Assembly (NCBI GenBank): GCA_011364965.1
Contig: RDOB01000001.1
Location: 129,368-161,367, forward strand
DNA length: 32,000 bases
Origin: Candidatus Heimdallarchaeota archaeon
Lineage (GTDB): Archaea > Asgardarchaeota > Heimdallarchaeia > Hodarchaeales > Hodarchaeaceae
Direction: 5' to 3'
The notes under the pieces are model-generated. The model saw only the letters and a list, made by a program, of their open reading frames with translations, was not told the origin of the DNA and made no database searches. Below are positions 642-23,953 of this stretch, piece by piece. The first letter of the stretch is position 1. Every line of letters starts with the position of its first letter. Made by a program: the position numbers and the translations under genes.

Positions 642-1691
642 ATGACTGGAGTAATAGGTCTCTTGACCGAGATTAAAAATCAGATTTCTGATTGGAACTT
701 CTTCAAAGCTCTACAAACAGGAAAAATACAATGCCTAGCTTGTCCTAGACATTGTCAACTAGTTGAGGATGAAATTGGATGGTGTGGAGCTCGTTTGAAC
801 AAGGGAGGAAAGATAATTCCTCGTACATATGGCCTAGTTTCTTCGATCGCTGTTGATCCAATAGAAAAGAAACCCCTTTATCATTTTCTCCCCGGATCAG
901 ACATTCTATCAATTGGGTCTCATGGGTGTAATCTGGGGTGTCTAAATTGCCAAAATTATTCTATTTCAATGAATCGTTCTATTACTTCTTTAAGGAAAAT
1001 GCCCCCCGAGGAGTTAATTCAGATTGCTTTAGCAAAAAAGTTACCCTCAATTGCTTCTACTTATAATGAACCAATGATAGCCTTTGAGTATGTTCGCGAT
1101 ATAGCAAATTTGGCACACAATGAAAATTTAAAGATGGTGGTCGTGGATAATGGGTATATTTCTAGAAGACTTGCAGAAAAACTTGCTCCACTGATTGACG
1201 CAGCAAATATTGACATAAAAGGTTTCTCAAAGGAATTTTATAAAGAAATTTGCAGTGCACCCTCTTGGAAACCGATTCTAAAGACATGTGAGATATTTCA
1301 TGAAAATGAGGTTCATCTTGAGATCACAAATCTTGTGATCCCTACTAAAAATGATTCCTCAGAAATGATCAATGAGATGTGTAAATGGATATACCAAACA
1401 CTGGGTGAGGACACTCCCGTGCATTTTTCTCGCTTTCATCCTGATTATAAGCTACATAATATACCTAGTACCCCTATTGGCACGCTAGAGAAAGCTTACC
1501 ATATTGCAAAAGAAGTGGGGTTGAATTATGTCTATATTGGCAATGTTAGATCCAGTAAGGGAAATAATAGTTTTTGTCCCAAGTGTGATAACTTACTAAT
1601 TGAAAGAATGGGATTCTATACATCTATTGTCGGTTTAAAGAATGGAAAATGTACTAATTGCCATCAATCTCTTGCATTTATACTTTCTTAA
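642..1691 (+). CDS. amrS: AmmeMemoRadiSam-system-type radical SAM enzyme (PFL-activase-like)
   Basis: N-terminal Cys cluster CLACPRHC...WCGAR and radical SAM CX3CX2C motif (GCNLGCLNCQN). C-terminal Zn-ribbon-like CPKC...CTNC. Length and layout are typical of the family. Confidence 0.8.
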   Translation: MTGVIGLLTEIKNQISDWNFFKALQTGKIQCLACPRHCQLVEDEIGWCGARLNKGGKIIPRTYGLVSSIAVDPIEKKPLYHFLPGSDILSIGSHGCNLGCLNCQNYSISMNRSITSLRKMPPEELIQIALAKKLPSIASTYNEPMIAFEYVRDIANLAHNENLKMVVVDNGYISRRLAEKLAPLIDAANIDIKGFSKEFYKEICSAPSWKPILKTCEIFHENEVHLEITNLVIPTKNDSSEMINEMCKWIYQTLGEDTPVHFSRFHPDYKLHNIPSTPIGTLEKAYHIAKEVGLNYVYIGNVRSSKGNNSFCPKCDNLLIERMGFYTSIVGLKNGKCTNCHQSLAFILS

Positions 1692-2134
1692 CCATCTAGT
1701 GAATCTGGGAAATTTGTAGCAAATGGAATTTCATATAATTGTTTTTCATACAGAGTATAAATTTGAATTTTTGAGGGATCTTTATTCTTTCCAATAACCC
1801 ACACATACGGAAAAGGCCAATTCTTCATAAATAGTAAATCTCTCTTTGATGGCTTTGTGTTACTAAAACTAGGATGGGAATGAAAGATTCCAATTAATGA
1901 ATGTCCTTTTTTCTCAAAAAAATGGATTTCTTTAACCATTATCTCATAATCCAGAGAGAAACTGGTTGAAGATTGATCGAGATTTTCCATGATAGTTAAA
2001 TTGTTAATATTAACAGAAGACTCATTAAAATGGCCGAAAAGTAAAACGATCTTCTCAATTTCTGAATAATCTCTTAGTAATTCTTTTAACTTGCCAAGAA
2101 CATCCTTTTCCATAATAACGCGTTTATATATCAA
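1688..2134 (-). CDS. JAB/MPN (JAMM) domain metalloprotease
   Basis: JAMM-like motif GIFHSHPSFSNTKPSKRD with an upstream acidic residue (EIEKIVLLFGH). About 148 aa, like stand-alone archaeal JAMM proteins. Its 3' end overlaps the 3' end of the radical SAM gene by 4 nt (convergent). Confidence 0.7.
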   Translation of the reverse strand: MIYKRVIMEKDVLGKLKELLRDYSEIEKIVLLFGHFNESSVNINNLTIMENLDQSSTSFSLDYEIMVKEIHFFEKKGHSLIGIFHSHPSFSNTKPSKRDLLFMKNWPFPYVWVIGKNKDPSKIQIYTLYEKQLYEIPFATNFPDSLDG

Positions 2135-4585: not shown

Positions 4586-6793
4586 TTAACCGTTGAAAGC
4601 ATCTAAAATATAAGAGTAGATATCTTTTTCTTTCCCTTCTGAGATATGCTTTAATCTTCTGACAATTAATTCAGGAGTAGATTTTGCATACTTATAATAA
4701 ACAGGTGTACGATTAACTAGTAATTCCAACTCTTCGGAAAGTCCTTTTGCTTCAATTCCATCAATTCTAATTGGTTCTTTACTATATTCTGCTATTAGTT
4801 GTGCAAGATGAGTGACGAATATTCCCAAAGAGTTAGGATCACGACTTAATAAATCAAGAAACGCAGCTATGACTCGAGCAGATGCTCCAGGTTCTGAAAT
4901 ACTTTCCATTTCATCTGCTAGGACAAGTCGAGATTCAGGACTTAAAATCATTTTTGATAATGTTCGTAAAGTACTTTCAAAAGCCCCTGCGTTCATTTGT
5001 CCGGATGATTTTCTGTAATAATGAAACTCCATAAATCCTCCAATTGAAGTTTTTTTTGCAGGAACTGGAAGACCCATTTGAGCTAGAATGACTATGATTG
5101 CCAAAGTTACCAATAAAGTTGTTTTACCACCGCTGTTTGCTCCTGATAATAGAATAATCCGCTCTCCTTTCACAAGTCCTTCAATTTTACCAAATTCCCC
5201 TGCTGCGTAGGAAACAGGTTCGAGGTTCATTTTCCCCAATAACGCCTGATTTGCTAAAAACAGATTTTTCCCTTCATCAACAATAATTCCAGTTCCTGAA
5301 CCAAAAATAAATTGAGGTATTACCATTTGGTAATCATTAGCAAATTTTCCAAGCATGAGAAGATAGTCGATTTCAAACATATTTTGCAAAGCATCTTTTA
5401 CCAATTCAATAAATGGATAAAACGATCGAGCTAGACTCACTTTTAGCTCGAAGGCAGTAATTGCCCTTTTTTGTCTCAATAAATCTTTTATTCGATCAAC
5501 AGATTCATCAATTGAGTCTATTGGATAACGAAGCTCACGAGGAAAAATTCCAGAGGCATAATCCAACTCTTCGTATTTTAAATTCAATTCTTTAACAAGT
5601 TGACTTTCTGCTTGGGTTATTAATTCTTCTACAGCCATAAATAATTCTTCATCCAAATAATCACGTAATTCAGAATTTCTTGAGCTGCTTGAATAACCTA
5701 TTTCTTCATCTGCCATTCCCTTAAGTAAAGCTATGATTTTCTCTCCACCTAGTTCTACTGTTGTATCCTTCAACATTTTTTCAAGCTGTTCATTCAATGT
5801 GAGTAGCACTTCAGATAATTTTTCATCAAACTTCACTTCTGCATTTAATAATCTAGAAAATTCTACACTAACTGATTCTGCAGGTTCACCTGAGTCAGTA
5901 ATTTTGTTGAGCATATCACCCATTTCCTTGATCTGATTGAGATCTAATTCCCCAATAAACATAGGAAGATCAAGCGGAGGAAGTGTTTGAAGTAAATGGG
6001 CAAGATTGGCAATAGATTTTAAACAAATTTTATTTCTAGCAAAAAAAATTAATGTTTTTTCAGGTAACAGTTGTATTATATCTTTTCTTTGACTCTCTGG
6101 AATCATGTATACATTGGGTAAGGATTCATCAAGCAGAATGTCAGAACCAATCCAGAGGATTTCATCATACTCTTTCATTGAGGAGATATCTTCGGGATCT
6201 TCTAAAAATATCATTTCACAATTATCAGCGATATCTGTTTGACTCAATTCTTTGTAAATCTGTTTATCAGTAGTTATAATGATTCGAGAAGCTGTATCGA
6301 GTGAAATTATTCTGTCCTTTAATGGTGATAAATTCTTTAATTGACTATCATAATCTTCTATGTGTTGTTTTGATTTTTCAATTAGGGAAATCAATTGCTT
6401 TCCTAATTGGGCTTGTTTTTGACGTTGTTTTATCTTCTCGATGAATGATATAGGTAATGGAAAGTATAGATATAATTTTGAGCGAGAATATAAAGTATTC
6501 GCGTATTTGGAAATCAAATCGGTAATTCGATTGTAAATTAATATCGCATCCTCCGTTTTTAGGAAATTTTCCAATTTCTCACCCGTTTCTTGGAAATGTA
6601 GATTTCTACATAGAGTTAACGCGAATCTCTCCCCGATTCCTTCAATTGAGGATAATTCTGCTATCCTAGAATTTCTCAGGAGATTTAGAACAGTTTCCTC
6701 GGTTCCAAAAGCATTAATAAGCTTTTCTTCAACCGAGGGGCCGATTCCGCGAATTTCTCTTAGTCTTTTTACGTCATTCATCTCTTTAATCAC
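4586..6793 (-). CDS. MutS-family ATPase (archaeal MutS2/MutS5-like) with N-terminal helix-hairpin-helix
   Basis: MutS domain V Walker A LLSGANSGGKTTLL and Walker B-like LVLADEMES, then FVTHL. N-terminal HhH (RGIGPSVEEKLINAFGT ... IEGIGERFA). Long coiled-coil middle region. Confidence 0.75.
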   Translation of the reverse strand: MIKEMNDVKRLREIRGIGPSVEEKLINAFGTEETVLNLLRNSRIAELSSIEGIGERFALTLCRNLHFQETGEKLENFLKTEDAILIYNRITDLISKYANTLYSRSKLYLYFPLPISFIEKIKQRQKQAQLGKQLISLIEKSKQHIEDYDSQLKNLSPLKDRIISLDTASRIIITTDKQIYKELSQTDIADNCEMIFLEDPEDISSMKEYDEILWIGSDILLDESLPNVYMIPESQRKDIIQLLPEKTLIFFARNKICLKSIANLAHLLQTLPPLDLPMFIGELDLNQIKEMGDMLNKITDSGEPAESVSVEFSRLLNAEVKFDEKLSEVLLTLNEQLEKMLKDTTVELGGEKIIALLKGMADEEIGYSSSSRNSELRDYLDEELFMAVEELITQAESQLVKELNLKYEELDYASGIFPRELRYPIDSIDESVDRIKDLLRQKRAITAFELKVSLARSFYPFIELVKDALQNMFEIDYLLMLGKFANDYQMVIPQFIFGSGTGIIVDEGKNLFLANQALLGKMNLEPVSYAAGEFGKIEGLVKGERIILLSGANSGGKTTLLVTLAIIVILAQMGLPVPAKKTSIGGFMEFHYYRKSSGQMNAGAFESTLRTLSKMILSPESRLVLADEMESISEPGASARVIAAFLDLLSRDPNSLGIFVTHLAQLIAEYSKEPIRIDGIEAKGLSEELELLVNRTPVYYKYAKSTPELIVRRLKHISEGKEKDIYSYILDAFNG

Positions 6794-6857
6794 TCAATGA
6801 ATCTTGGATACCAGTTTTCTATGTGAATTTTTGTATATTATTTAGGTTACAGTCGAG

Positions 6858-7769
6858 CTAGAGATAGTTAATTCTTTTTGCTCTAGCAAGATTAATAAAT
6901 TCTTGAATCTCTGAATATGAACAGTGATCGGAATAAGGGAAGAAATGGACGTTAAAAGCTTTTTTACGTAATTTTAAACTCCATCCTGTTGGAGAAATGC
7001 GAAGAGCTTCAATTAATTTAATCTTGTTGTCCTCAGAAATCCCATGTAAATTCTCTACAACTCGTCGGGAATCAACATAAACTCCAGTTCCTCCTTCAGA
7101 AGTAAAAATGTCCCACTCCCCTCCAATTTCTTTATATATCCTTTCTTTCAATTCCGAGGCAGTAATTTTGACTTTAAGCGCCTGACTCACTGTTCTAAGA
7201 AGAAGTTCCTTTCCTATTTGATATGAAGCAATCCAAATATCTCTTTCAGGAAAATTCCCCGATGATAAAATCAATGTGACTATCTGAGAAATCATTTCTT
7301 CTCTAGAAGGAAAATCAAATCTTGAATCAGCTCCATAGGTATTATCGAGCCAGAGTTGATCAGCTCCTTGCAATAAATCTCTTTCTTTGCGCATAGAATC
7401 CCCCATTCGAAAATCACCTGTATAAATTTCCTTTAATCCAGTTTTTGATTCGATTACATACATCAAACTACCAACACAATGATTTGCATCAATTGCATGT
7501 ACTATGAAGTCATCGAAATCCAAAGACTGATTAGGATTTACTATCAAGCACTTTTCTTTGGGAATATTGCATAGAAAACGGATTACTGATGATGTCTCAT
7601 CAGAACATACAATTATTACATCAGGATCTGAAAGACTATATTTGATACCAGAAAGATGATCCGAATGAGCATGAGATAGAAAAAAGTATTGAGAAGATTT
7701 TCTACGACTATCTTTTCGTCGAAAGGGAAATTCATCAAAATAGCTCTCTGCAATATGTGAAAAAACCAT
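6858..7769 (-). CDS. SNM1/PSO2/Artemis-type (DRMBL) beta-CASP DNA nuclease
   Basis: The motif series closely resembles my recollection of eukaryotic DCLRE1/SNM1 proteins: FLSHAHSDHLSG, IDANHCVGSLMYV, YTGDFRMG, LWLDNTYG, FPSREE, SYQIGKE, SPTGWS, FPYSDHCSYSEIQEFI. Confidence 0.8.
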   Translation of the reverse strand: MVFSHIAESYFDEFPFRRKDSRRKSSQYFFLSHAHSDHLSGIKYSLSDPDVIIVCSDETSSVIRFLCNIPKEKCLIVNPNQSLDFDDFIVHAIDANHCVGSLMYVIESKTGLKEIYTGDFRMGDSMRKERDLLQGADQLWLDNTYGADSRFDFPSREEMISQIVTLILSSGNFPERDIWIASYQIGKELLLRTVSQALKVKITASELKERIYKEIGGEWDIFTSEGGTGVYVDSRRVVENLHGISEDNKIKLIEALRISPTGWSLKLRKKAFNVHFFPYSDHCSYSEIQEFINLARAKRINYL

Positions 7770-9585: not shown

Positions 9586-10542
9586 CTACTGGTAAGACAA
9601 ACCATACCAATCTCCACCTTTCATATCAAGAAAAGCAGAGATTGCTGCTGTTGTTCCTTCTCCAACTGCAACAGATATTTGTCCCTGACCTGGTGTTATA
9701 TCCCCACATGCATATACCCTTTGCACATTTGTACGCTGCTTATTATCCACTTTAATTAACCCCTCGGGGGTTAATTCGACACCAATTTTCTTAGCCAGTT
9801 CATTATTTGGAAGAATACCAATTGCAATGAAAATTGCTTTGACTCTAAGAGTTTCTTCTGCACCAGTTTTAACGTTTTGGACTAGTATTTTTTTAATCCC
9901 AGTATCTTCAGAGCCCTGTATCTCTTTTACAATCGAATCCCAAATCATATCTACTGCTGAATTTTCAAGAATTTGTTTTTGTAGGGATTCTTCTGCACGA
10001 AGACGATCACGACGATGTATCAAATAAGTTTTAAGAACAACATTGTCTAAATATAATGCTTCAGTTACTGCAGAATTTCCTCCTCCAACCACAGCTACTT
10101 TTTTACCTCTATAAAGCGGGCCATCGCATGTTGCACAGTATGATACTCCCTTGCCTTCAAATTCAGTCTCACCAGGGATATCAAGATGTCGATGATTAGT
10201 TCCTGTTGCTAAAATCACCACTTTAGTCTGAAAAATCCCTGTTGAAGAGACCACTTCCATTGGAACTTTATCTGTTTTTATATCTACTACTTCAACAAGC
10301 TCTCTAATCTCTGCTCCAAATTTCTCAGCTTGTGCCTTTAAACGTTGAGCAAACTCCATTCCAGAGATTTCAGAAAATCCGGGATAGTTTTCGATAATAG
10401 GAGTGGTCGCTGCTAATCCTCCTACCGCCTCTTTGTCTAGTACTAATACTTTCCAGCCCATTCTTGATCCATATATGGCTGCAGCCATACCTGCGGGTCC
10501 AGCTCCAACCACAATCATGTCATATTTGGATTCTGTGCTCAT
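9586..10542 (-). CDS. trxB: thioredoxin-disulfide reductase
   Basis: FAD motif VVGAGPAGMAAAIY, redox-active CATCDG, NADPH motif VVGGGNSAVTEALYL, and C-terminal GDITPG. Confidence 0.9.
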   Translation of the reverse strand: MSTESKYDMIVVGAGPAGMAAAIYGSRMGWKVLVLDKEAVGGLAATTPIIENYPGFSEISGMEFAQRLKAQAEKFGAEIRELVEVVDIKTDKVPMEVVSSTGIFQTKVVILATGTNHRHLDIPGETEFEGKGVSYCATCDGPLYRGKKVAVVGGGNSAVTEALYLDNVVLKTYLIHRRDRLRAEESLQKQILENSAVDMIWDSIVKEIQGSEDTGIKKILVQNVKTGAEETLRVKAIFIAIGILPNNELAKKIGVELTPEGLIKVDNKQRTNVQRVYACGDITPGQGQISVAVGEGTTAAISAFLDMKGGDWYGLSYQ

Positions 10543-11007: not shown

Positions 11008-13626
11008 ATGGAAATACTTGAAGCTTCCACTTCTGAAATATCTTTTCAAATACAGAGAGGAGACGCAATTTTTCATGAACAGGATTTCATTTTGGTGACA
11101 GAAGGAGAAACAGATAAAGAGAAGCAATTTATAGCTCAAATTTCAAAATTAGTGCAGACAGAACCAGACAAAATACGTGGAAACGCAATAATACTTGGTG
11201 AAATAGATTTCAATAGCTATAATCTACAAGCTTGTCGATTTCCGATCTCCATTCATGCAAAACTCACTCATCCGCCTCCGGGACTGATTTCAAAGGTGTT
11301 ATCATACCGTGGGGAGGATGGAATCTATTTAGGGGATGTTGTTACTTATGAAAATAAATCTGATTCATTTTTAATATCACCAGAATTCATGGAACGGCAT
11401 GTCCTTTGCGTTGCAAGTACAGGTGCAGGAAAATCCTACACTATAGGAGTAATTTTAGAAGAACTCTTGCTTAAAACTCAAGGAGTAGCGATAGTCCTTT
11501 TCGATATCCATAATGAGTATTGGGGATTAATCGAGCCTAATGAAGGGCCAGAGACAAAAAACCTCACCTTTGATTCATATAAACCTAGAGGATTTCCCGA
11601 AAATATTATGATTTTTGATAAAGAAGTTCTTTCGCTAGGTAAACTTGTTGATTTACCAAGATTACGTAGAATTCTTGATCTGACTCCTGCACAGGAAAAC
11701 TCCCTGGTCAATATTATTAAAAATCCAATCCCATTAGAAGACTTGATATCACTTATTGAATCGTCCAATATTCATTCTTCCACACGAGAGAATTTAATTT
11801 TAAAAATAAATTCGCTAATCGCACTTAATCTTTTCCAAAATGGATTGGATATTAAATCTTTGGGAAAAGCAGGACAAATATCAATTATTCGTCTTGATGA
11901 GTTTATAGATGAACGAAAGCGGGATTTAGTTGTCAATGAAATATTGAATCACATATTTGAGAAGAAAATTCATGGGGATTTACCTAGAGAAAGTGATATC
12001 GTTATTGTTGTAGAAGAGGCTCATCGTTATGCTAAATCAAGCGAAATTCTTGCCAGAATAGCCCGCGAGGGACGCAAATTCGGTATTTATGAAATATTGA
12101 TTTCTCAAAGACCAGGTGATCTCCCTGATAATATTATTGCCAATATGAATACCCTTATCGCCCTAAGAATTCGATCTGATAAAGATATCAGCAAAATTAG
12201 AATGATGGAAGGAATCAGCTCTGATACTGTATCTATCCTTCCACATTTAGATAAAGGAGAAGCCCTTTTAGTGGGTCATCACGGTGCTACAAGTCGTCCA
12301 TTGAAAATAAATATTCGTCCACGATTAACAAAGCATGTGGACCCCCAAAAGGACATTATGCCGTTCTATACTCCGTTTTTTAAGAATAAAGGCAAATCTG
12401 ACGAATTTAGTGTTGATGAAATCCCATTACAACCTACAGAAGTTGAAGACCTAATTATAAATGACGATGAGTTATTTTCGTCAAAATTAGAGGCATTTAC
12501 TTACATGGATCTAACAAACCTGTTATCTTGTCAACACATTTTAATTCAACATAAAAATACTGGAATTTGTCTCTTTGATTTAGGAACTACAATGTTAAAA
12601 ATTGATGCTCAGTTAGTATCGGGTTTCTTGAGTGCTATATCTGGATTATTTAGTGAATTGAAGAATAAGACACCAGTTAAAGATCGGACAATTGTTCGTA
12701 TGTTCACTGAAGAGATTGGAGACAGAGCATTTGAAATATTAACTGTAGAAGGTTCATATTCGATTTTAGCTATTATCTTGAATCGTAAACCAAAATATTT
12801 GGGTCATTTCAAACGAAAAGTAAGAAATTTTATTTATGCGTTTGAAAAAAGATACAAAACCACACTCAAAGACTTTGTTGGTGTTCTTGATGATTTTCAG
12901 AGTACTTATGAATTGCTTGATCAGTTTCTGGGTTTATCCCTCCAAACACCCTTAGTTTTGAACTCAGAATTCAAGGATGTTCAATCTTATCCTATAGTAT
13001 TGAATATTATTACGAATTTAAGCGAACAGCTAGCTCAATCAGAAGGGATTTTTCTTGAAGAAATAGTCAATCAATGCCTTCTAGATTCAGAATATAATTA
13101 TCGTGAGATAGCGGAAATACTAATCTCTTTACTTGAAGAGAAAGCTCTTATACTTGCTGATAGTTCTCGGAAGGTTCCTCCTGTCAGTACTAGAGAAGAT
13201 TTAATGTTTATAGGTACATCCGAAACGGAAGAAATAAAAGTAGAGCTCAATAATGATGTGGTAGATGCTCAAAACCTAGATGAAATTGATACTCATGAAC
13301 AAGAACTACGGATTAAGGATATATTTTCCGAGTGTCAGGTTCATTCATTATCTGCTGGACTGAAACGAGATATTTTAACCCGTGATTTTATTTTTGAATC
13401 AAAAGTTCAAGTTAAAACTGAAACTACAAAAACTGAAGTCCTTAGTAAAACAGATTTGTTAAAATGGATTAAAAAAATACTAGAAAAAGGTTTTGTACTT
13501 CATGAAGTCTTGGAAAACCCTTTGAAAGGAAAAAAACTCCTTTTTCGATCAGAATATGGAGCGGCAGCTCTTTCCATCGCATTAATCTCAGATGATGAGT
13601 TTATAATTATATTCGGTGAGTTTTAG
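11008..13626 (+). CDS. HerA/FtsK-superfamily (DUF87-type) ATPase fused to a C-terminal Roadblock/longin-like module and wH-like region
   Basis: N-terminal barrel-like region. Walker A is HVLCVASTGAGKSYT and Walker B is IVIVVEEAHRY. The family signature REGRKFGIYEILISQRPGDLPDNIIANMNTLIALRI is present. The C-terminal half carries a beta-alpha-beta module with GFLSAISGLFSEL (about 12500-12940). Confidence 0.8.
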   Translation: MEILEASTSEISFQIQRGDAIFHEQDFILVTEGETDKEKQFIAQISKLVQTEPDKIRGNAIILGEIDFNSYNLQACRFPISIHAKLTHPPPGLISKVLSYRGEDGIYLGDVVTYENKSDSFLISPEFMERHVLCVASTGAGKSYTIGVILEELLLKTQGVAIVLFDIHNEYWGLIEPNEGPETKNLTFDSYKPRGFPENIMIFDKEVLSLGKLVDLPRLRRILDLTPAQENSLVNIIKNPIPLEDLISLIESSNIHSSTRENLILKINSLIALNLFQNGLDIKSLGKAGQISIIRLDEFIDERKRDLVVNEILNHIFEKKIHGDLPRESDIVIVVEEAHRYAKSSEILARIAREGRKFGIYEILISQRPGDLPDNIIANMNTLIALRIRSDKDISKIRMMEGISSDTVSILPHLDKGEALLVGHHGATSRPLKINIRPRLTKHVDPQKDIMPFYTPFFKNKGKSDEFSVDEIPLQPTEVEDLIINDDELFSSKLEAFTYMDLTNLLSCQHILIQHKNTGICLFDLGTTMLKIDAQLVSGFLSAISGLFSELKNKTPVKDRTIVRMFTEEIGDRAFEILTVEGSYSILAIILNRKPKYLGHFKRKVRNFIYAFEKRYKTTLKDFVGVLDDFQSTYELLDQFLGLSLQTPLVLNSEFKDVQSYPIVLNIITNLSEQLAQSEGIFLEEIVNQCLLDSEYNYREIAEILISLLEEKALILADSSRKVPPVSTREDLMFIGTSETEEIKVELNNDVVDAQNLDEIDTHEQELRIKDIFSECQVHSLSAGLKRDILTRDFIFESKVQVKTETTKTEVLSKTDLLKWIKKILEKGFVLHEVLENPLKGKKLLFRSEYGAAALSIALISDDEFIIIFGEF

Positions 13627-13632
13627 AGAAAT

Positions 13633-16194
13633 TTATGCTCCACTAGAAAACATCTCATCAATTACTTCTGTTTCAGGTTTGAAAACATCTAGGTCTCCAA
13701 GCCAAACTGGTAGTACTTTAAGGTACTTAAGTTCGAATTGTTTTAAATAATCACTTAGCTTTCTACGGAGCTCTGTGGATGTACTATCTGCAAATATTGC
13801 AGCAAAAACCCATTTTGCATACTCAATCGTAAGTACGACATCTCCATGATCGATTGTTTTTAATAATTGCTCGCTTCTTACAGCTTCCTTAGCAAAAGAT
13901 GTTATTGCAGAGAAAAGTCCAGCCACCAAAGCAGGTTCTACTTGAGATTCTGCTGCAAAATTATGTGCCAAAACTGCTCGTCCATCTAACATCATAATAT
14001 GTAGTGAATCGATAGTTACTTCCTCATAACAATATGAAAATTCACGATGTTTCAAGGTGACTAAGTATTTTATTGGGATATTCAAATCAAATGTCAAATG
14101 ATCCAAAATTTGGTGGATTTTCCTTAAGTCGAATCCTGTTGTCTTTGATAAGTCATAAAAAGTCATTAAACCATCTTTAAGTGCTTCTTTTATCTGAGGT
14201 GCGTTTTCAACTTTTAACCACGCATTTTCTACTGCATTTAAAATATCAGGATTATTTAGAGAACTCAAACTAATGAGAATTATATCAGATTTTTTCTTAA
14301 GTTCATTTAAGCTTGGGAGTCGCGAAATATCACAGAATATCGATTTGTAAAACAATTTTTCCTCCCCTTCTTCAAAACCTTTTTGCGTACTAACGGTGAA
14401 TTTTCGTTTAAATAGGAAAATCAAGGATCCATAAGTCATAATGATTGCAAAAGGATGAAAGAGATTGTAAGGAATTGAAAGGATACCTAGAAATGCACCT
14501 CCAGTTCCTCTCCAAACCACTGGAATCTGATATAGTTCTGGAACTATAAACGCTATACCTTCATAATAGCCAATTTTCCACACGGAGGTTAGCCACTTCA
14601 AATTAACTGCGGTAACTGTAATGAAAGGAGATATTAACGGAGTTCCCCCATAATTTGGAAACACCGAGTTAGCAGGGAAACCTAAAAGCTGATATAATTG
14701 TAATCCATACCATTCATTAATTAATAGGCTAACTGAGAAGATAGAAAGGTAAGTTAAAACTGCAGTTCCAATAATACTCCAATTCCACCTCCTTATGAAT
14801 AAAATTAACATAGCACTGATTAAAAAGGTAGCATAATTTTGAGTAAACCAGAAAAATGTATCATATTGAACAGTGTTAATATTTATAAAAATTCCAGAAA
14901 TAAAAACTCTATAAGTAAGAAATCCAATAGCAAGAAAGAAGCCTACCACAACACCTGTTCCAAAGGACTTCAGAGTGTTGGCTAAACTTATTCTTCGAAG
15001 AGTTTTTCTAAATTGTTTAAAGGATTCAATTAATTTTATCAAAAGATAGATAGAAAAGGGTTCAAAAATATCAAGGAAGAGTACGAAGAAAATTGATACC
15101 ATAATAAAATATACTACAAAAAATGAAATAACAAAAATCTGATTTATATATTGCACTAGAAATAAAATCACTGCTAATCCAGACATAAATGCTCCAACGG
15201 TTGAAAGACTTTGCACCATCGTTACATATAACTGATTACCAAGAAATTTCCCCTTTCTTGAAAGATGACTTGCTTTAATTAAATAAACACTAAATACAAG
15301 GGTAGCAATGTATGCAAAGTAAATCTCAAGAAACCAACCCATGGAAGTTCCTTGAAGCAAGCTAGGATTTTCATATTCGCCCAATAATTGTAAGATTGTC
15401 ATCAATAGAAACAAAGTTATAGGTAATATTGCGATTAGAACTTTTAATAATTCCCTTTCATTACTCCAATCCTTCTGTTTTACTCTTTTCGTGATTTCTT
15501 GGAATGGGGAAGTTTCCATTTCGAATTGCACTTCTTGAAGTCGCTGGACAACATTGCGAATTTGGGAGAGCTGCCCATTTAACTCTGTATTTTCTTTTAT
15601 TAATTCATTTATCTGGTATTCAATATTTTGTTGATCATTACTTGTTTTCAGCTGTTTTTGAAGTTCTTTTATCTGTTCAGCATTTTCTTTTATCAGCCTT
15701 TTAATAGGCTTTCTTTCAGCTCTCTGTTCGCCCCAAGTTTGATATAAAATGATAAAGAGTGAAAAAATTGGTGATATTCCAAACACAAAAGCTAAAATCA
15801 CAATTGGATATGTTAAATATATCACAATCGAGTTGAGAAAGTGTTGAAACAAATATTTTATTAATAGTGGAACAGGGATATAAATAGTACCGAATCGTAC
15901 AATTGCAGCTGAATCCCAAATAGTACTATAGCTATTAGTACCTGGAACTGGATAAAATTCTTGATCTAAATATCCTGTGGGATTGGGTACAAATGAGTTA
16001 AGTATGCTAGGGAAAATAAAGTAACAGATATAAAATACGATGAATCCTAAATATGCACGATTGAAAATAGTTGCAGCTAAGTTCTCATCCTTCCGACGGG
16101 TAAAGAGATATGGAAAGAAGGGGATAATTATTGGTGTTAAAGTTAATACGATTGAAGCAACTAAATTTAATGAATCTGCTTGAACTACTGACAT
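13633..16194 (-). CDS. large polytopic membrane protein with internal coiled coil and cytoplasmic C-terminal wH plus Roadblock/longin-like module
   Basis: A dozen or more hydrophobic helices by eye. A coiled-coil insert follows the first helix bundle (KENAEQIKELQKQLK...QLSQIRNVVQRLQEVQ). The C-terminal soluble module carries GLFSAITSFAKEA (about 13640-14020). No recognisable enzyme motif. Confidence 0.65.
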   Translation of the reverse strand: MSVVQADSLNLVASIVLTLTPIIIPFFPYLFTRRKDENLAATIFNRAYLGFIVFYICYFIFPSILNSFVPNPTGYLDQEFYPVPGTNSYSTIWDSAAIVRFGTIYIPVPLLIKYLFQHFLNSIVIYLTYPIVILAFVFGISPIFSLFIILYQTWGEQRAERKPIKRLIKENAEQIKELQKQLKTSNDQQNIEYQINELIKENTELNGQLSQIRNVVQRLQEVQFEMETSPFQEITKRVKQKDWSNERELLKVLIAILPITLFLLMTILQLLGEYENPSLLQGTSMGWFLEIYFAYIATLVFSVYLIKASHLSRKGKFLGNQLYVTMVQSLSTVGAFMSGLAVILFLVQYINQIFVISFFVVYFIMVSIFFVLFLDIFEPFSIYLLIKLIESFKQFRKTLRRISLANTLKSFGTGVVVGFFLAIGFLTYRVFISGIFININTVQYDTFFWFTQNYATFLISAMLILFIRRWNWSIIGTAVLTYLSIFSVSLLINEWYGLQLYQLLGFPANSVFPNYGGTPLISPFITVTAVNLKWLTSVWKIGYYEGIAFIVPELYQIPVVWRGTGGAFLGILSIPYNLFHPFAIIMTYGSLIFLFKRKFTVSTQKGFEEGEEKLFYKSIFCDISRLPSLNELKKKSDIILISLSSLNNPDILNAVENAWLKVENAPQIKEALKDGLMTFYDLSKTTGFDLRKIHQILDHLTFDLNIPIKYLVTLKHREFSYCYEEVTIDSLHIMMLDGRAVLAHNFAAESQVEPALVAGLFSAITSFAKEAVRSEQLLKTIDHGDVVLTIEYAKWVFAAIFADSTSTELRRKLSDYLKQFELKYLKVLPVWLGDLDVFKPETEVIDEMFSSGA

Positions 16195-16434: not shown

Positions 16435-18180
16435 TTATCTTCTTCTTTTACGATAAATTGCATATAATGGAGGTAGAGCTAAAAAGGTTGAGATTAATTC
16501 AAATCCAGGGATTGCTCCAAATCCATTTCCAGGTGGTGTACCAGTATCCGAAGTGTCATCAACAGCTAAAGCAGCAACAGCAGAGTAGGCTGGATCATGA
16601 TAAATTTCACCACCATACCACTCGGAGAATTCAGTGAAAGTGAAATAGAGGATAGAAGACACATAAACATCAGCTGTTCCGGCCATTGAGAAAGTATCAC
16701 TTAATTCGTAAGCTAAGAATTTAGTGAAACCATAAGCATAGGCAAATTCAACAGCAAAATATTCTCGGGCAACATTAGTAATAACCCAAGTATCCGAGGG
16801 AGTGAATGGGATAATATAAACCGGACGATCCGCATTAGGGTCAATTCCCCAAAGATCAAAGAGGCCTTTAAGTTTGTAGGTATTTTTATTAGTAAATTCT
16901 GTGAAGAAGAAGGTATTGCCACCTGTTACTAAATCAATGGTCCGGCTAGTCTCATTTTCTAGCTGATTATTAACTGAAGGATCTTCCGCTAATGAAATTC
17001 CGAATGTGGTGGTAGCTGTAGCTACAGTTAATCCAAATCCGTTAGCCATTCGCATACGAGCCTTAGCATCATCATCCAAATAGAAAGCCATTTCATTTAA
17101 GGTTACAGTGACTGCGCTAGGGAGTGGTGCTGGAAGACCAGTTGAGAAACCAGCAAGATCATCAGGAACATCGAATGTATAAGAAGGAGCAGCTACAAAT
17201 GGGGTATGATTCCAATCTGCAGTAGGTAACGTATTTTCATTTATTACTAGAAAATTGGTTTCCCCGATATTATAATGAGTTGTCACTGTACCCAGTACGT
17301 ATTTATTAGCACCTATCATTTCTTGAGTTTTAAATTCATAGTCAAAACTAATATAATCAAGAACACTAGCTGCAACAATATCCCTGCCATATATGATTCC
17401 ACGAGTATCATCTTGGATATATTGACTACCTGCGCCAAAGATATCGACACCAGTCGGTGCTACACCTATTTCTTGCCATAAAACAAACATATTCTCGTAT
17501 CTGATCCCGAATTTGTAGACATCACCCACTTTTTCAAAAGAGGAAGAATAATCAAAGTGTCCAATTCGATAATCATGCATATTATCTTCTAAAACTCCAT
17601 TAACAGCATCAACTAATTCTTGGATGCTAAATGTATAACCTAAGTAAAGCTTGTCTTCGGAATCCATTATTCGATCATTTGGGTCAGATGAATAAGCAAT
17701 TAGTGCCATGAAGTTGTTTGTTACAAATACATCTTGATCTTCAGGAGTTTTGAAGTGTTGTACTAGCTGTTGAAATGGTGCAGTTGCATTGACATGAAAA
17801 ATTGTTGTATCCAAAGGACCTGGATAATAGGGATGCAAGATATCATATACTGCATCGTCAAGCAATTCTCCAAAGGTTATGTCGTGCTCCATCTTTTCTA
17901 GTGCAGAAAAAGCAGTTTCTATTCCACTATCGTTCATATATGCCATGTAGAACTGATGATCTTCAAATTCATCAGTATCTCCAGTTGCTGCGCCAGGATT
18001 AATTAGATCCTTAATTAAGTCAGGATTTGATGGATCAGGGACAGCGAGATCTACTTCTATAGCAAAATATTCTTCGCTAAAAGTATGACCTCCAAACTCT
18101 GTGGCTTGAACTGAAGTGGTAAAAGTAAGGAGAAACAGTAAGGTTATTACTGAAATTCCTATCAAAATTTTCCTTTTCAT
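16435..18180 (-). CDS. secreted surface protein with PGF-CTERM-like sorting signal
   Basis: Signal peptide MKRKILIGISVITLLFLLTFTTSVQA. C-terminus is DDTSDTGTPPGNGFGAIPGFELISTFLALPPLYAIYRKRRR (Thr/Pro linker, PGF, TM helix, basic tail). Paralogous to the upstream gene. Confidence 0.7.
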   Translation of the reverse strand: MKRKILIGISVITLLFLLTFTTSVQATEFGGHTFSEEYFAIEVDLAVPDPSNPDLIKDLINPGAATGDTDEFEDHQFYMAYMNDSGIETAFSALEKMEHDITFGELLDDAVYDILHPYYPGPLDTTIFHVNATAPFQQLVQHFKTPEDQDVFVTNNFMALIAYSSDPNDRIMDSEDKLYLGYTFSIQELVDAVNGVLEDNMHDYRIGHFDYSSSFEKVGDVYKFGIRYENMFVLWQEIGVAPTGVDIFGAGSQYIQDDTRGIIYGRDIVAASVLDYISFDYEFKTQEMIGANKYVLGTVTTHYNIGETNFLVINENTLPTADWNHTPFVAAPSYTFDVPDDLAGFSTGLPAPLPSAVTVTLNEMAFYLDDDAKARMRMANGFGLTVATATTTFGISLAEDPSVNNQLENETSRTIDLVTGGNTFFFTEFTNKNTYKLKGLFDLWGIDPNADRPVYIIPFTPSDTWVITNVAREYFAVEFAYAYGFTKFLAYELSDTFSMAGTADVYVSSILYFTFTEFSEWYGGEIYHDPAYSAVAALAVDDTSDTGTPPGNGFGAIPGFELISTFLALPPLYAIYRKRRR

Positions 18181-18305
18181 TATTATATCACCATTAATGT
18201 AACACTAACTAGAAAATCTATCCGAGAATCACCTAATGGATAGTTCGAGTGTTATGTCTAAGATTAATGCATCTATTCCCCCTTTTAAAAATGTATGAAA
18301 TGAAC

Positions 18306-18335
18306 TTCAGCATTTCTTTACCAATTCATGCTGAA
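18306..18335 (-). terminator. hairpin (8-bp arms TTCAGCAT/ATGCTGAA, 14-nt loop) between the two surface-protein genes
   Basis: A perfect inverted repeat lies between the stop of 18454..20082 and the start of 16435..18180. A T5 run follows on the minus strand (about 18287-18291). Confidence 0.3.
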
Positions 18336-18453
18336 ATCTTCTAATTAATTTTTTTTTCAGCTAGATTTGACACAAGTCGTTAAGTGATAACCTGATATAT
18401 TTCTAATGAAACAAGAGACAACAGTTATTATTTATTCTATCGAAGTTTCATTA

Positions 18454-20082
18454 TCAAAGTTTTCGCCTTTTTCTTATTTTAAGGCTGATCAGCAGTAAGA
18501 CTAAAAATGAGGGAAAGAAAGAAATGGAAGTAATTTGGGAGTGTTCACCGTTGAAGAAGGATTCAGAAGTTGTTGCATGGAGAACATCAAGTAGTTGGAA
18601 TGAAATTGGGTTTCCAGTCCAATTTATAACCCCAGAGTCGCGAAAATACTTTGCAGATTGTAAATATAGTCCTGTAATATCATAAAGCTGATCAGGAGTT
18701 AAATCCTTTATCTGGTTGTTTTCAGAATAGTGTTGAATACATTCAGTAACAATATCTCGAACTATAGAAGTTTCTTGTCTGAATAATAAATTACCCGCGA
18801 ACCCTGTTTGCTGATTCAACGCTATAGAAAATGAGTTCATCGGAAGTAAAGTTGGATTGTTAGCAGGATTCTCAATTGCAAATTCCCGACCATTTATGTA
18901 AGAGGTGAATAAAGGGGCTTCATTAAATAGGAGAGAGACTTCCTCCGTTATTAAAAAATTTTGAGCTCCCAATTCTGCTTTGCTTGTATTTCTTGCGTCT
19001 ATATACACCTCAATTCCTTCTAGAGTTTTCGTTCCATTCAATAAGCCTAAACTTTGACTTGTTATTAAAGAGAAGGTTAAACTGTCAAATAATGTGAGAC
19101 GGTGGGAAATATCACTACCTGTATAGTAAGAAAAAGTATCGTTTATTTCAAGTAAGCCAAATAGATTCTCCTCAACGCGAAAATCAAAAGCATTTATCCA
19201 GGTACCCTCTGGTAAATCTTCATTAATAATGAGAGTTAGAATTTTTCCCACGTTTACTTTAACTCTTGATTCTACGCCATTTTCTTTATTTAAGATGTAT
19301 TTTGAGACAGAAAAGGTGAAAGCTAGGGTTTCGAACTGAAGAAAGAGAAGATTGGAACCAATTTCAAATTCAAAAAAACCAATTCCTTCTGTTTGAAAGA
19401 GAAATGTTACATTTGAATAAATAACATCAACCTGAAAACTATCCTTTTTCTCCTGAATATTAATTGATGGATTATAGGGGAACTCAGTAAATATATTACC
19501 AACATTCATCGCAGTATTAACTGTTTGTATGTCAGTACCATATCCTATTATTAAGTTTATAAGATCCATTGGTAAATTAGCATACCCTAGCTGATATGTT
19601 GCTGGGTTATAATTCTCTTCATCAATTTTAAGTGCAATTCCTAATATATCCAGACTTGAAACAACATCAAATCCTTGGGGAAGAGTATAATGATTAACAA
19701 GTTTCATAAATGGTAGTGGGGTTTGGTATTTGATGGGAGTATCAAAACCAAATATTTCCTGTGTGCGTCCTACCTTCTCAATGGCCATTATCGCTGTACT
19801 TATCCCATGGTACTTCTGGCTTATTAGAGAAAGAATATTATCTTCTTGAAGGTCACTATCATTGGTAGAAAATTGTTCAGAAGAGATTAAATCAGTTAAT
19901 AAATCGAGATTACGATTAAAAGAATTATAATCAAACCGTAATCCAAATAAATCTTCGTTGTAATAATCTGATAAATTGTCAAACTGATAACTTGGAGATC
20001 CATTTGAGACCACTACATTAGTTGAATATAAGAGGATTAACATAAGTATAGGCCAATATCGATATCGCGAGAGTGATTTCAT
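18454..20082 (-). CDS. secreted, sequon-rich surface protein with C-terminal TM anchor and basic tail (paralog of 16435..18180)
   Basis: The preferred start is the ATG at 20082 (MKSLSRYRYWPILMLILL..., signal-peptide-like). It overlaps the upstream stop as TAATG. The ORF track starts 10 codons earlier at 20112. Many N-x-S/T sequons are present. The C-terminus is FFPSFLVLLLISLKIRKRRKL. Blocks are shared with the downstream paralog (GISTAIMAIEKV vs GIETAFSALEKM; PFMKLVNHY vs PFQQLVQHF). Confidence 0.65.
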   Translation of the reverse strand: MKSLSRYRYWPILMLILLYSTNVVVSNGSPSYQFDNLSDYYNEDLFGLRFDYNSFNRNLDLLTDLISSEQFSTNDSDLQEDNILSLISQKYHGISTAIMAIEKVGRTQEIFGFDTPIKYQTPLPFMKLVNHYTLPQGFDVVSSLDILGIALKIDEENYNPATYQLGYANLPMDLINLIIGYGTDIQTVNTAMNVGNIFTEFPYNPSINIQEKKDSFQVDVIYSNVTFLFQTEGIGFFEFEIGSNLLFLQFETLAFTFSVSKYILNKENGVESRVKVNVGKILTLIINEDLPEGTWINAFDFRVEENLFGLLEINDTFSYYTGSDISHRLTLFDSLTFSLITSQSLGLLNGTKTLEGIEVYIDARNTSKAELGAQNFLITEEVSLLFNEAPLFTSYINGREFAIENPANNPTLLPMNSFSIALNQQTGFAGNLLFRQETSIVRDIVTECIQHYSENNQIKDLTPDQLYDITGLYLQSAKYFRDSGVINWTGNPISFQLLDVLHATTSESFFNGEHSQITSISFFPSFLVLLLISLKIRKRRKL

Positions 20083-21551
20083 TAAGCAGCCTCCAAATAG
20101 TTTCTTAGCCAATTCAAGTGCTTCGGGCCAACCATGTATTCGTATCTTTTTCTGTCTTTCACTGTAATTATTATTCCAAGTTCTCCCAATTTTTTTATAT
20201 GATGCTGTACGCTAGAATGATGAACATCAATTTCTTGGGATATCTTTGAGAGGGATAATGGTTTCGGTTCTCTGAGTAATAATCGACATAATTCTTTGGC
20301 TACATCGCTTTTCAACGCTAAAGCCAACTCTGTAATTGTTGTCGACTTTTCCCCTGTTAAGTAAAAAATATGGTATTTACCAAGTTTTGCATGAGTAACC
20401 AGATTAAAGTCATCTAAAGCCTGAAGGTGCCACAAGAGCGAAGAAATCCCACATCCAACTTCTCGTTGGATCTCTCTTAAATGTGCTCCTTCTTCCCCTT
20501 TATGTTGCAAATATTCCATAATCTGCTCTCGTAATTCATTCTCTAGTAACTCATCTTCACTGATACGCCTTTTCTGAGGGGAATATGCAATATGAGCAAT
20601 TAGAAAAAACCCACTCATCAATATTCCAACAATAAAATCTTTTAGTTTGGTAAGTAAACCAAATTTTATGGCTGAAACTAGAAGAAAAATGCTGGTAATA
20701 GATATTATTCCGACTGTAACTATATCACCTAATCCAATCATTTGAAGAAAGGCATTATTATTTCCAGAAAGCGTACCAATCGTGATTTCGGCTACTTGAG
20801 CTAGCAAATCAACTATGGCTATTGATTGAAGAGAAGCTCCATAGCCTATGGGCTCTATTTCATAATTTATAGAGAAAGAAGCTACAATTTCTCTACTGTC
20901 AGCGCGCCATATGCCAGAAGTTAAATTATTTAATTCTGGAATCAAAAAAGGAGGAGAAATTTCAGCTAAAACCTGACATTGGTCAGAAAGGTCGACCCAT
21001 GCTGCACTACCAGAGAAGAGTGTAGTTAATTCGGTTTCATTTAATTCTGTAAAGAATTTAGGATTCAGAATTAGTTTTTGTTCACTAAAAGATCCATTAA
21101 TTGGAACAACAAGTGGTGCATAACTTCTGATGCCAAATTGGTTTAGAATCTCAATAGGAGTATGTTCAAAATATCTGTTCAGTAGGAATATACCCCTATT
21201 TGTTTCTTTCCAATTAGCTAAGCTTGCTAAAAAACCCAAATCGATTGGTAGAGGTAGCTCATTTATCCACCAAATACTAACAAAACTGTCGTTGTTAAAT
21301 ACAAATGACGAATCTGAAAGCACTTCTGTAATGTTATAAAATACTGCAGTTTTCTCAATATGCGTAATTAGATCCTCGCTTAATTTTCTATCATTCTCAG
21401 AACCAAAAAATACTGCAATGGTACCTTCGGTCTCATAGAATTTTGCAGCTGCTCTCTGTGTAATAAAAAGACAGTTTACCAAAATAATACAGAAGAAGAT
21501 GAATCCGCTGTTTGAAAATATTCTCTTCTTTGTATTCTTTGGATACTCCAT
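20082..21551 (-). CDS. membrane-anchored transcription regulator: extracytoplasmic domain, two TM helices, two C-terminal ArsR-like wHTH domains
   Basis: N-terminal signal/anchor (FIFFCIILVNCLFI). About 250-aa outside domain with N-x-S/T sequons. TM pair (IVTVGIISITSIFLLVSAI / IVGILMSGFFLIAHIAY). Then IMEYLQHKGEEGAHLREIQREVGCGISSLLWHLQAL and LSLSKISQEIDVHHSSVQHHIKKLGELGII. Confidence 0.65.
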   Translation of the reverse strand: MEYPKNTKKRIFSNSGFIFFCIILVNCLFITQRAAAKFYETEGTIAVFFGSENDRKLSEDLITHIEKTAVFYNITEVLSDSSFVFNNDSFVSIWWINELPLPIDLGFLASLANWKETNRGIFLLNRYFEHTPIEILNQFGIRSYAPLVVPINGSFSEQKLILNPKFFTELNETELTTLFSGSAAWVDLSDQCQVLAEISPPFLIPELNNLTSGIWRADSREIVASFSINYEIEPIGYGASLQSIAIVDLLAQVAEITIGTLSGNNNAFLQMIGLGDIVTVGIISITSIFLLVSAIKFGLLTKLKDFIVGILMSGFFLIAHIAYSPQKRRISEDELLENELREQIMEYLQHKGEEGAHLREIQREVGCGISSLLWHLQALDDFNLVTHAKLGKYHIFYLTGEKSTTITELALALKSDVAKELCRLLLREPKPLSLSKISQEIDVHHSSVQHHIKKLGELGIIITVKDRKRYEYMVGPKHLNWLRNYLEAA

Positions 21552-22917: not shown

Positions 22918-23376
22918 TCATTTCAGCCGACATGAATCCGCCCGACTTCGTATAAATTTATTAATAACAAGTTTTCCGTCTGTTTGGAATTTTCGCATTT
23001 TAACTGCGAAATCTTCCCAGTAAGTGAGAAGTGCCTCTCTTTGCTCTCGCTTAGTAACCATTTCAGTATTGAGAAAGAAAGAGATATCATAACCTTTCTC
23101 AGGTTCGCGAATAACCTTGATTTTAGATCCAGGATCCCGCCATAGCTCATTTCGGATTCTATCAAAGATGAATTCTTCAACTGGGTCATTAAAAGCAAGT
23201 TTTAGGGATACAATAGCAGAATTGCCCTGCTTGATTAATTGCCCATTTTCAAAACTAAGTTCCTCACGTCTGATTTTCTCACAGCATGGGTGATCAGGAT
23301 CAAGAATGCATATAGGTTCCATCCCTGTTTGGCATGGGACGACCTGTAAAACTAGATCTGATTCCTTTAATGGCAT
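22918..23376 (-). CDS. hypothetical protein with N-terminal Cys cluster
   Basis: Clean 152-aa ORF with coding-like composition. Contains CQTGMEPICILDPDHPCC. No family recognised. Confidence 0.45.
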   Translation of the reverse strand: MPLKESDLVLQVVPCQTGMEPICILDPDHPCCEKIRREELSFENGQLIKQGNSAIVSLKLAFNDPVEEFIFDRIRNELWRDPGSKIKVIREPEKGYDISFFLNTEMVTKREQREALLTYWEDFAVKMRKFQTDGKLVINKFIRSRADSCRLK

Positions 23377-23521: not shown

Positions 23522-23953
23522 CTAAAATTCCCGAATTTTAAGGAGTTTATTTTTTGTTGAAGTAACAAGATAATGCATTAGTCCTAATTTAACATCTGGT
23601 GAAGTAATTATAACAAGTATTGTTGAATTCACTTTTGAAATTAGTCCTAGTCCTAATGGAGTCTGCACATGAATAAAATCGATAGTATTTCCTAAATCAA
23701 GCTGAACACAAGCACTAGAAAACGTACTAACTATACCAGCTACCATAGCTGAAACTAGGATTTCCACTTCATCTGTGATGGGAGCAGTTTGAGCACTCAT
23801 TATTGGAAATCCCTCCTCACTTACTAATAAGGCTTTTTCCACTCCTTTTACTAATCCAAGTCCATCCAGTATCTTCTGGATCTGTTCGGTTGAACTAATC
23901 CCTTCATTTTTTTCAGTAGTCATATTTCCAAAGGTTGCCATGTAATCATCCAC
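23522..23953 (-). CDS. Roadblock/LC7 (MglB-like) domain protein
   Basis: The size and pattern are typical of Roadblock/LC7: ILDGLGLVKGVEKALLVSEEGFPI ... ILVSAMVAGIVSTFSSACVQLDLG ... FIHVQTPLGLGLISKV ... ILVIITS. Confidence 0.65.
   Translation of the reverse strand: MDDYMATFGNMTTEKNEGISSTEQIQKILDGLGLVKGVEKALLVSEEGFPIMSAQTAPITDEVEILVSAMVAGIVSTFSSACVQLDLGNTIDFIHVQTPLGLGLISKVNSTILVIITSPDVKLGLMHYLVTSTKNKLLKIREF

Follow-up and report, generated by a model that had tools for sequence, protein, structure and literature searches.

A soluble HerA-type ATPase and a polytopic membrane protein encoded by adjacent, convergent genes of a Hodarchaeales-type Asgard archaeon carry homologous longin-like modules. 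The two open reading frames (ORFs), here called A (872 amino acids, aa) and B (853 aa), lie in a 32,000-nucleotide (nt) stretch of a Candidatus Heimdallarchaeota archaeon genome (contig RDOB01000001.1, positions 129,368 to 161,367), which we refer to as the window and whose own coordinates are used throughout; A and B are the only carriers of the module within it. Their placement on opposite strands, with stop codons 6 nt apart (TAG at 13624–13626 for A; TAA at 13633–13635, minus strand, for B), is as an earlier, sequence-only reading of this DNA had it (Table 1). Both have database twins of 100% identity from a metagenome-assembled genome of 'Candidatus Heimdallarchaeota archaeon': P0001 ('ATP-binding protein') for A and P0121 (hypothetical protein EAX86_00775) for B. 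We tentatively favor a reading in which A and B work together and the homologous modules recruit the soluble ATPase to B on its cytoplasmic side, and we consider it possible, at somewhat short of an even chance.

By sequence comparison, A residues 498–645 and B residues 725–853 are homologous, and their likeness is above chance. BLASTP aligns A 531–639 with B 751–847 (26% identity over 109 aa, E = 7e-5), reciprocal phmmer searches started from each module recover essentially all members of the other family, and hhalign joins the two families both as full-length profiles (95.4% probability, E = 1.8e-8) and as profiles of the module only (97.9%, E = 4e-13). Homology between A and B is confined to this region: the segments that flank the module give an hhalign probability of 0.3%. 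The sequence-only reading had claimed that both proteins end in a similar module, quoting peptides from it that lie at positions 510, 536, 576 and 624 of A and 731, 756, 786 and 832 of B. The likeness has stood up, but the position has not in A, where the module is internal (about 498–645) and some 230 residues follow it. A winged-helix-like segment had also been proposed next to each module. That description fits the unit of three helices and a strand in A, whereas the corresponding region of B is mixed α/β, the two segments being unrelated and having no helix-turn-helix (HTH) match in Pfam.

Structural models place both modules in the longin/Roadblock superfamily, as had been proposed from their sequences. 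In DSSP assignments of the AlphaFold models each module is a five-stranded antiparallel sheet with helices, in the order β-β-α-β-β-β-α(-α). For the B module, 50/50 top Foldseek matches in the PDB are longin or Roadblock domains (probability 1.00, TMt 0.4–0.68), including AP sigma (8d9w_X), AP μ, zeta-COP, TRAPP Bet5/Trs23 (3cue_C, TMt 0.63), Mon1-Ccz1, Sec22b, LAMTOR and MK-D1 Roadblock2; single-domain matches for the A module are MK-D1 Roadblock2 (9jq8), MglB, LAMTOR and AP5 sigma. The order of strands and helices, together with the extra C-terminal helix, agrees with how Tran et al. (PMC10933270) define the longin variant. Searches with sequence gave a different picture: the Pfam longin, Roadblock (Robl_LC7), Sybindin, Sedlin and Clat_adaptor_s models match neither A nor B nor any of 24 module sequences at E ≤ 1, PDB chains searched by sequence with the module gave no match, and hhalign detects no sequence relation between the module and the window's own Robl_LC7 protein (~1% probability). 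It is thus the predicted fold alone that supports the longin/Roadblock assignment. Both modules share the α/β sandwich and the strand/helix order with the superfamily (LC7, MglB, LAMTOR), and they differ from its known members in belonging to a family that has no Pfam model, that is typically juxtamembrane and that is fused here to a HerA-type ATPase and an 11-transmembrane (TM) protein.

Judged by mean pairwise identity, the module is under strong constraint in both proteins. In A its identity is 0.66, beside 0.68 for the motor domain, and in B it reaches 0.83, the highest of any B region (TM core, 0.75); the B module also holds 26 of the 36 invariant columns of that protein.

The module is not private to the A–B pair but recurs, by profile search, in many architectures. 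A profile built from both modules and searched exhaustively against 1.84 billion representative proteins matched 5,250 clusters at E ≤ 1e-3 (1,108 when the threshold is E ≤ 1e-10), and every carrier that has a name is from Asgard archaea (Hod-, Heimdall-, Hel-, Loki- and Atabey-archaeal labels). We surveyed architectures among the top 141 representatives. These include B-like polytopic proteins, A-like HerA ATPases, unrelated 4–12-TM proteins with a C-terminal module, tandem repeats of two or three copies, stand-alone proteins of 100–160 aa, fusions in which a TM helix is followed by the module and a KaiC/RecA-like ATPase, and single-pass receptor-like giants (signal peptide, 1,000–1,400-aa ectodomain, TM helix, module and helical tail). 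GTPase fusions are absent from these 141 proteins, and a further annotated homology search with the module profile returned B-family fragments only, with no new architectures or names.

Across this diversity the module keeps a characteristic position. An upstream TM helix is present in 70 of 104 non-B-like members, and in 69/70 no more than 60 residues separate the last TM helix from the start of the module (median 27), which is thus normally tethered just under the membrane; a TM helix after the module is predicted in only one protein. Soluble HerA-type proteins are the exception to this rule. In the TM–module–KaiC fusions (P0231, P0238, P0239 and P0241; L029 6977–11020) the module lies 15–19 residues after the TM helix and about 10 before the ATPase, which is KaiC/RecA-like (PF06745 plus DUF835); P0238, from an Atabeyarchaeia chromosome, also has immunoglobulin-like ectodomains. 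The receptor-like giants, 1,000–2,640 aa long (P0251, P0262, P0266, P0275, P0278, P0305, P0311 and others, two of them from Lokiarchaeum ossiferum), carry the module ~27 residues after their single TM helix; the helical tail behind the module is conserved and measures ~279 aa, or 476 aa in an extended form. The ~279-aa tail has no Pfam match, is not an NTPase and shows no relationship with KaiC or the A motor.

Parts of this picture were known. Roadblock and longin domains are greatly expanded and shuffled in Asgard archaea, where they make up about 130 asCOGs (10.1101/2020.10.19.343400), and Asgard Roadblock proteins dimerize, as seen by crystallography (PMC10933270). What is new here is the architecture, the gene pair and the positional rule: in the searchable literature we found no description of a HerA–longin fusion or of a B-type polytopic family, in keeping with the earlier suggestion that the architecture matches no described system.

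A is a soluble ATPase of the FtsK/HerA superfamily with a complete HerA/DUF87 motor, which had been recognized from its motifs and is borne out by profile and structure matches. PF01935 (DUF87) aligns to residues 107–316 (Pfam, E = 4e-18), and solved HerA structures match residues ~100–440 (E = 3e-36 to 1e-20; 9x1l, E = 3e-36; 4d2i, E = 2e-30). Walker A occupies residues 136–145 (nt 11413–11442), Walker B 334–341 (nt 12007–12030), REGRK 353–357 and QRP 367–369, and the motif residues (Walker A A136–Y144, Walker B E336–R340, REGRK and QRP) are invariant in 37 homologues. Residues 1–105 are conserved as well (identity 0.52), and A contains no convincing TM segment.

Judged by bit scores, A is no orthologue of HerA. 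With archaeal HerA, the helicase of HerA–NurA DNA end resection, it shares the RecA-like P-loop motor and the Walker A/B and REGRK/QRP motifs, but it falls far under the HerA equivalog cutoffs (NF040819, 106.2 bits vs. 970; NF040937, 81.8 vs. 800), both models aligning only to partial stretches of the motor. NurA, the absence of which had been noted in the sequence-only reading, has no match among the scanned window ORFs, nor do Mre11 and Rad50, and none of the three is listed in loci L001–L004. The C-terminal extension of ~430 residues, which had marked A as noncanonical from the outset, comprises the module, a helical unit and an α/β domain, and is absent in 79/80 sampled HerA-motor loci. 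These came from a metagenome scan with divergent A-like proteins, by a tool keyed on the motor motif REGRKFG, which returned 79 ordinary HerA loci and one orthologue. As a negative control, the 79 generic loci show no module, no A-type tail and no B neighbor; the sole exception is the true orthologue.

The AlphaFold model of A residues 440–872 (predicted local distance difference test, pLDDT, 72.8) runs from a disordered linker through the longin-like domain, a three-helix winged-helix-like unit and a disordered acidic linker to a terminal α/β domain. A Pfam search with the winged-helix-like unit gave no match, HTH models included. The terminal domain is kept in distant A-like proteins (tail hidden Markov model, E = 8e-15 to 2e-50), and we ruled out that it is a second copy of the module (hhalign probability 0.1%). 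We also rejected a tri-longin RabGEF architecture for the C-terminal half of A: among its Foldseek matches, the high-ranking Fuzzy-Inturned, Mon1-Ccz1 and CPLANE (E = 2e-4 to 1e-3) reach TM-scores of only 0.17–0.24, with a root-mean-square deviation of ~20 Å. One A-like protein, P0247 of locus L034 (7727–10339, minus strand), has a well-kept module and tail (E = 1e-29 and 2e-50), while its motor has moved far from the A-family profile, to which it aligns in fragments only (E = 3e-11); in this lineage the enzyme may be degenerating or changing.

B is an Asgard-specific membrane protein whose module is predicted to face the cytoplasm. Its full-length AlphaFold model (pLDDT 81.9; predicted template-modeling score, pTM, 0.82) has 11 TM helices, not the dozen or more first counted. 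Loop charges indicate an N-out/C-in topology, with 28 lysines and arginines in cytoplasmic loops vs. 2 in external loops; therefore the coiled-coil hairpin and the C-terminal domain would face the cytoplasm, in agreement with the cytoplasmic C terminus that had been supposed. The cytoplasmic tail spans residues 598–853 and ends in the longin-like module. The conserved acidic positions E290, D375 and E378 are located within the membrane or close to it, and the model also has an extracytoplasmic β-hairpin loop. B has no family match in Pfam, NCBIfam or PADLOC, and none of the 50 Foldseek PDB matches listed falls on its membrane domain. PF28006.1 occurs in the precomputed annotations of 3/68 B homologues (P0125, P0141 and P0147); the accession may be that of a recent family over part of B.

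The internal coiled coil that had been noticed in the sequence appears in the model as a helical hairpin after TM3; distant B homologues have no such hairpin, their alignments skipping the corresponding profile positions, which suggests a lineage-specific insertion. NCBIfam matches to the exosortase-associated HpsJ family at B 122–251 (window ~15440–15830; E = 0.003, 17 bits vs. cutoffs of 60–140) were rejected and are probably compositional, since they overlap TM3 and this hairpin; we mention them beside the fact that a neighbor of B encodes a CTERM-sorted surface protein. In the region before the module, the B-family profile has a weak match to PDB 8whn, the cytoplasmic domain by which Lokiarchaeal OST1/ribophorin I binds ribosomes (E = 0.0013 over 110 columns, B ~615–725, window ~14020–14350). 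This match, which is not among the top 50 Foldseek matches, is a weak lead.

The convergent A–B arrangement is conserved among orthologous loci and in some distant ones. Scanning species-representative genomes, we obtained 21 orthologous loci, and B lies convergently downstream of A in all of them. Two carry ~1.6 kb inserted between the genes (L011 8204–9834 and L014 5399–7052), and in L015 the match to B downstream of A is partial, covering its last ~110 residues. The gap between the stops is ~45–130 nt in most orthologous loci. Beyond these, convergent pairs are present in L036, in L034 (B 50% identical; gap 7 nt) and in L031 (B 33% and the A-like protein 24% identical; module E = 2e-29, tail E = 8e-15; gap 70 nt), where the pair is inverted as a unit relative to the PTPS and thioredoxin reductase (TrxR) genes and the other neighbors differ. 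A TrxR-like gene lies one to three genes from the A-like ATPase in L003, L004, L031 and L034, in changing orientation, and in L003 and L004 genes for Arf-like small GTPases follow just beyond it.

By analogy with solved longin and Roadblock proteins, the module family is probably a dimerization or adaptor platform. In the joint mechanism that we tentatively favor, the A module would pair with the B module, directly or within a small longin/Roadblock assembly, A, as a hexameric-type ATPase, would be recruited to the cytoplasmic face of B, and ATP hydrolysis by A would then drive a process of the cell envelope. In this scheme we infer the physical interaction of A with B, the oligomeric state and the substrate or process that is powered; the link to genes for surface proteins suggests an envelope-related process for A. 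Joint function is favored because the module family is juxtamembrane, because single chains exist that fuse a TM helix, the module and an ATPase, because the module is strongly constrained in both proteins, and because the pair survives in L031.

Several observations weigh against this mechanism. The whole block of ~17 kb (MutS-like, DRMBL, MptE, PTPS, TrxR, A, B, S581, S552, HTH and HIT) is collinear in 21/21 loci, and because the entire block is syntenic, the adjacency of A and B within Hodarchaeales is not independent evidence of a link. Since the genes are convergent, they are not co-transcribed. The co-occurrence of the pair anticipated in the sequence-only reading holds in the 21 Hodarchaeales-type loci, L031, L034 and L036, but breaks down in other distant loci: no B adjoins the distant A-like genes of L003 and L004, and the distant B-like genes of L005, L030, L032, L033 and L035 have neither A nor any other module-bearing gene beside them. 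B is also linked to the surface-protein/HTH cluster upstream of it at least as consistently as to A. Genes like S581 and HTH accompany B in the distant loci L006 and L032, an HTH489 homologue adjoining the B-like gene in the latter (41% identity over the C-terminal 220 aa), and the B-like genes of L005, L030 and L033 share a conserved context of their own, between HDAC and cyclase genes. Finally, a module found in at least 5,250 clusters is promiscuous, which makes its sharing weak evidence of mutual binding, and homodimerization within each protein's own oligomer is equally plausible; the tandem and stand-alone forms of the module are compatible with dimerization without proving it.

The same module could instead place A and B under parallel regulation without docking one to the other, each binding a third partner of one common kind (for instance a small GTPase, or a Roadblock or longin protein that stands alone), so that both would answer to a common signal or sit on a common scaffold. 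We consider this rather unlikely. In eukaryotes and bacteria, longin and Roadblock domains typically serve as platforms for GTPases (MglB, Ragulator, TRAPP, Mon1-Ccz1), and it is these that Foldseek returns; small GTPases are numerous in Asgard genomes, as are Roadblock/longin proteins, the module itself also occurs in stand-alone and tandem form, a canonical Roadblock/LC7 gene is present in the window itself (23522–23953), and the Arf-like genes near distant A-like genes in L003 and L004 are suggestive, if only that. Yet there is no small GTPase gene among the window ORFs, the top 141 module proteins are free of GTPase fusions, and the module bears no detectable sequence relation to the window's Roadblock protein.

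A and B might also have unrelated functions and be adjacent through inherited synteny, a reading that we likewise regard as doubtful. A would then be a cytosolic nucleic-acid translocase or helicase with a regulatory longin domain, B would belong to the cluster of surface proteins and a membrane regulator, and the domain they share would reflect its mere commonness in Asgard proteomes. The collinear block, the convergent orientation and the unpaired distant homologues of both genes fit this account, as do the company that B keeps in L006 and L032, where S581-like and HTH genes are beside it but A is not, the TrxR neighbors of A-like genes in L003, L004, L031 and L034, and the MutS-like, DRMBL and β-CASP genes upstream of A. 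Less easily accommodated is L031, where the pair has outlasted both an inversion and a change of neighborhood at 24% and 33% identity. It is also A and B, and no other genes of the 32-kb window, that carry the module, and we put the chance adjacency of two carriers at about a few percent, a rough estimate that assumes perhaps tens of module genes per genome.

An antiphage defense system around a HerA ATPase, of the kind of Sir2-HerA or DUF4297-HerA with B as membrane effector, is very improbable and was rejected: PADLOC HerA models do match A (best E = 2e-39), but only its generic motor, there is no PADLOC match for B or the neighbors and no cognate effector, and the housekeeping surroundings and stable core-genome synteny, with a position conserved in at least 21 species, are unlike a defense island.

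In its general logic, and by analogy, the arrangement of A and B resembles membrane-coupled FtsK/HerA/VirB4 machines, which place an ATPase at the cytoplasmic face of a polytopic partner with a small cytoplasmic interaction domain. Such machines include the type VII secretion system (T7SS), with the EccC ATPase and the 11-TM EccD, and type IV secretion systems, with VirB4 and coupling proteins. A third is the crenarchaeal Ced system, which imports DNA. A differs from EssC (20 bits vs. a cutoff of 778) and from CedD of the Ced system (NF053655, 70.7 bits vs. a cutoff of 600), being also without a TM anchor; B lacks any family match that would mark it as a CedA-type partner, and no small pilin-like or substrate genes were identified in the locus. 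The comparison with Ced, raised in the sequence-only reading, holds as an analogy only. The TM–module–KaiC proteins of Asgard archaea show the order membrane, module, ATPase that A and B would reproduce as two chains. They differ in their class of ATPase (KaiC/RecA-like PF06745 rather than FtsK/HerA DUF87) and in being single-pass, receptor-like single chains, which are themselves uncharacterized.

The genes around the A–B pair are typically archaeal. Upstream of B and on the same strand lies a cluster of two secreted paralogues and a membrane-anchored regulator (S581, S552 and HTH489; 16435–21551), in which the C-terminal anchor of S552 is a TM helix followed by a basic tail. Farther along are a canonical Roadblock/LC7 protein on the minus strand (PF03259, E = 9e-10) and, adjoining it, an ARPC4-like protein (22918–23376, minus strand; PF05856, E = 2e-7), both Asgard 'eukaryotic signature' genes, ~7–10 kb from the pair. 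On the other side the window encodes a coiled-coil protein with subthreshold ATG14/ATG16-like matches (135–641, plus strand), a prokaryotic JAB deubiquitinase-like protein (1688–2134, minus strand), a MutS-domain-V protein with an N-terminal helix-hairpin-helix beside a DRMBL metallo-β-lactamase (4586–7769, minus strand, for the former) and, near A, a TrxR-like gene (9586–10542). A scan of the window for sigma-70 promoters and terminators showed no enrichment, the sigma-70 consensus being unsuited to archaea.

Table 1. Features of the A–B locus, in window coordinates
Feature	Position	Strand	Evidence or remark
ORF A, soluble FtsK/HerA-superfamily (DUF87) ATPase with long C-terminal extension	11008..13626	+	Pfam, PDB matches
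A motor domain, residues ~106–440	11323..12327	+	PF01935 and PDB HerA matches
A longin-like module, residues ~498–645, α0-β-β-α-β-β-β-α-α	12499..12942	+	model m703addb4f932, Foldseek, homology to B module
A helical (winged-helix-like) unit, residues ~646–729	12943..13194	+	DSSP: three helices and short strand
A acidic disordered linker, residues ~730–760	13195..13287	+	pLDDT <50; mean identity 0.17
A C-terminal α/β domain, residues ~761–872	13288..13626	+	model: α-α-β-α-β-β-β-β
Spacer AGAAAT between convergent stops	13627..13632	.	6 nt
ORF B, polytopic membrane protein, Asgard-specific	13633..16194	-	full-length model
B longin-like module, residues ~725–853, β-β-α-β-β-β-α-α	13636..14022	-	model, Foldseek
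B cytoplasmic pre-module region, residues ~598–724, mixed α/β and helices	14023..14403	-	model
B membrane domain, residues 1–597, 11 TM helices	14404..16194	-	model and loop charges
B cytoplasmic helical (coiled-coil) hairpin after TM3, residues ~151–243	15466..15744	-	model helices 110–184, 188–210
S581, secreted surface protein, Heimdall-CTERM sorting signal	16435..18180	-	NF045529 32.3 bits vs. cutoff 24; signal peptide
S552, weak paralogue of S581 with signal peptide and C-terminal anchor	18454..20112	-	BLASTP vs. S581 22% identity, E = 9e-7
HTH489, membrane-anchored regulator	20082..21551	-	TM helix, ectodomain, two TM helices, tandem winged HTH

Eukaryotic membrane trafficking and GTPase signaling depend centrally on longin and Roadblock domains, and models of the origin of eukaryotes draw a key argument from the expansion of these domains in Asgard archaea. 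Our analysis defines a large subfamily of these domains that current Pfam models miss, together with a strong positional rule for it (members lie directly beneath the membrane, behind the final TM helix, and often ahead of an output domain). It also brings out a conserved pair of genes whose products, one a soluble motor of the HerA type and the other a polytopic membrane protein, both carry the module. If the modules do not pair, the results still provide a useful annotation of two widespread 'hypothetical' proteins of Hodarchaeales, which among Asgard lineages is reported to lie nearest to eukaryotes. If they do, two domains of ~130 residues each would offer a small system for studying how Asgard cells bring cytoplasmic machines to membranes. 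A bolder proposal, which we think unlikely, is that Hodarchaeales use longin–longin pairing to recruit a hexameric FtsK/HerA motor to a dedicated 11-TM partner, forming a previously unknown envelope or translocation machine, and that the juxtamembrane longin-like family as a whole is an archaeal recruitment system. Were this true, several thousand juxtamembrane longin-like domains would bring HerA-type ATPases, KaiC-type ATPases and further cytoplasmic output machines to membrane proteins, and the membrane-recruitment role of longin domains in eukaryotic trafficking would have a prokaryotic precedent.

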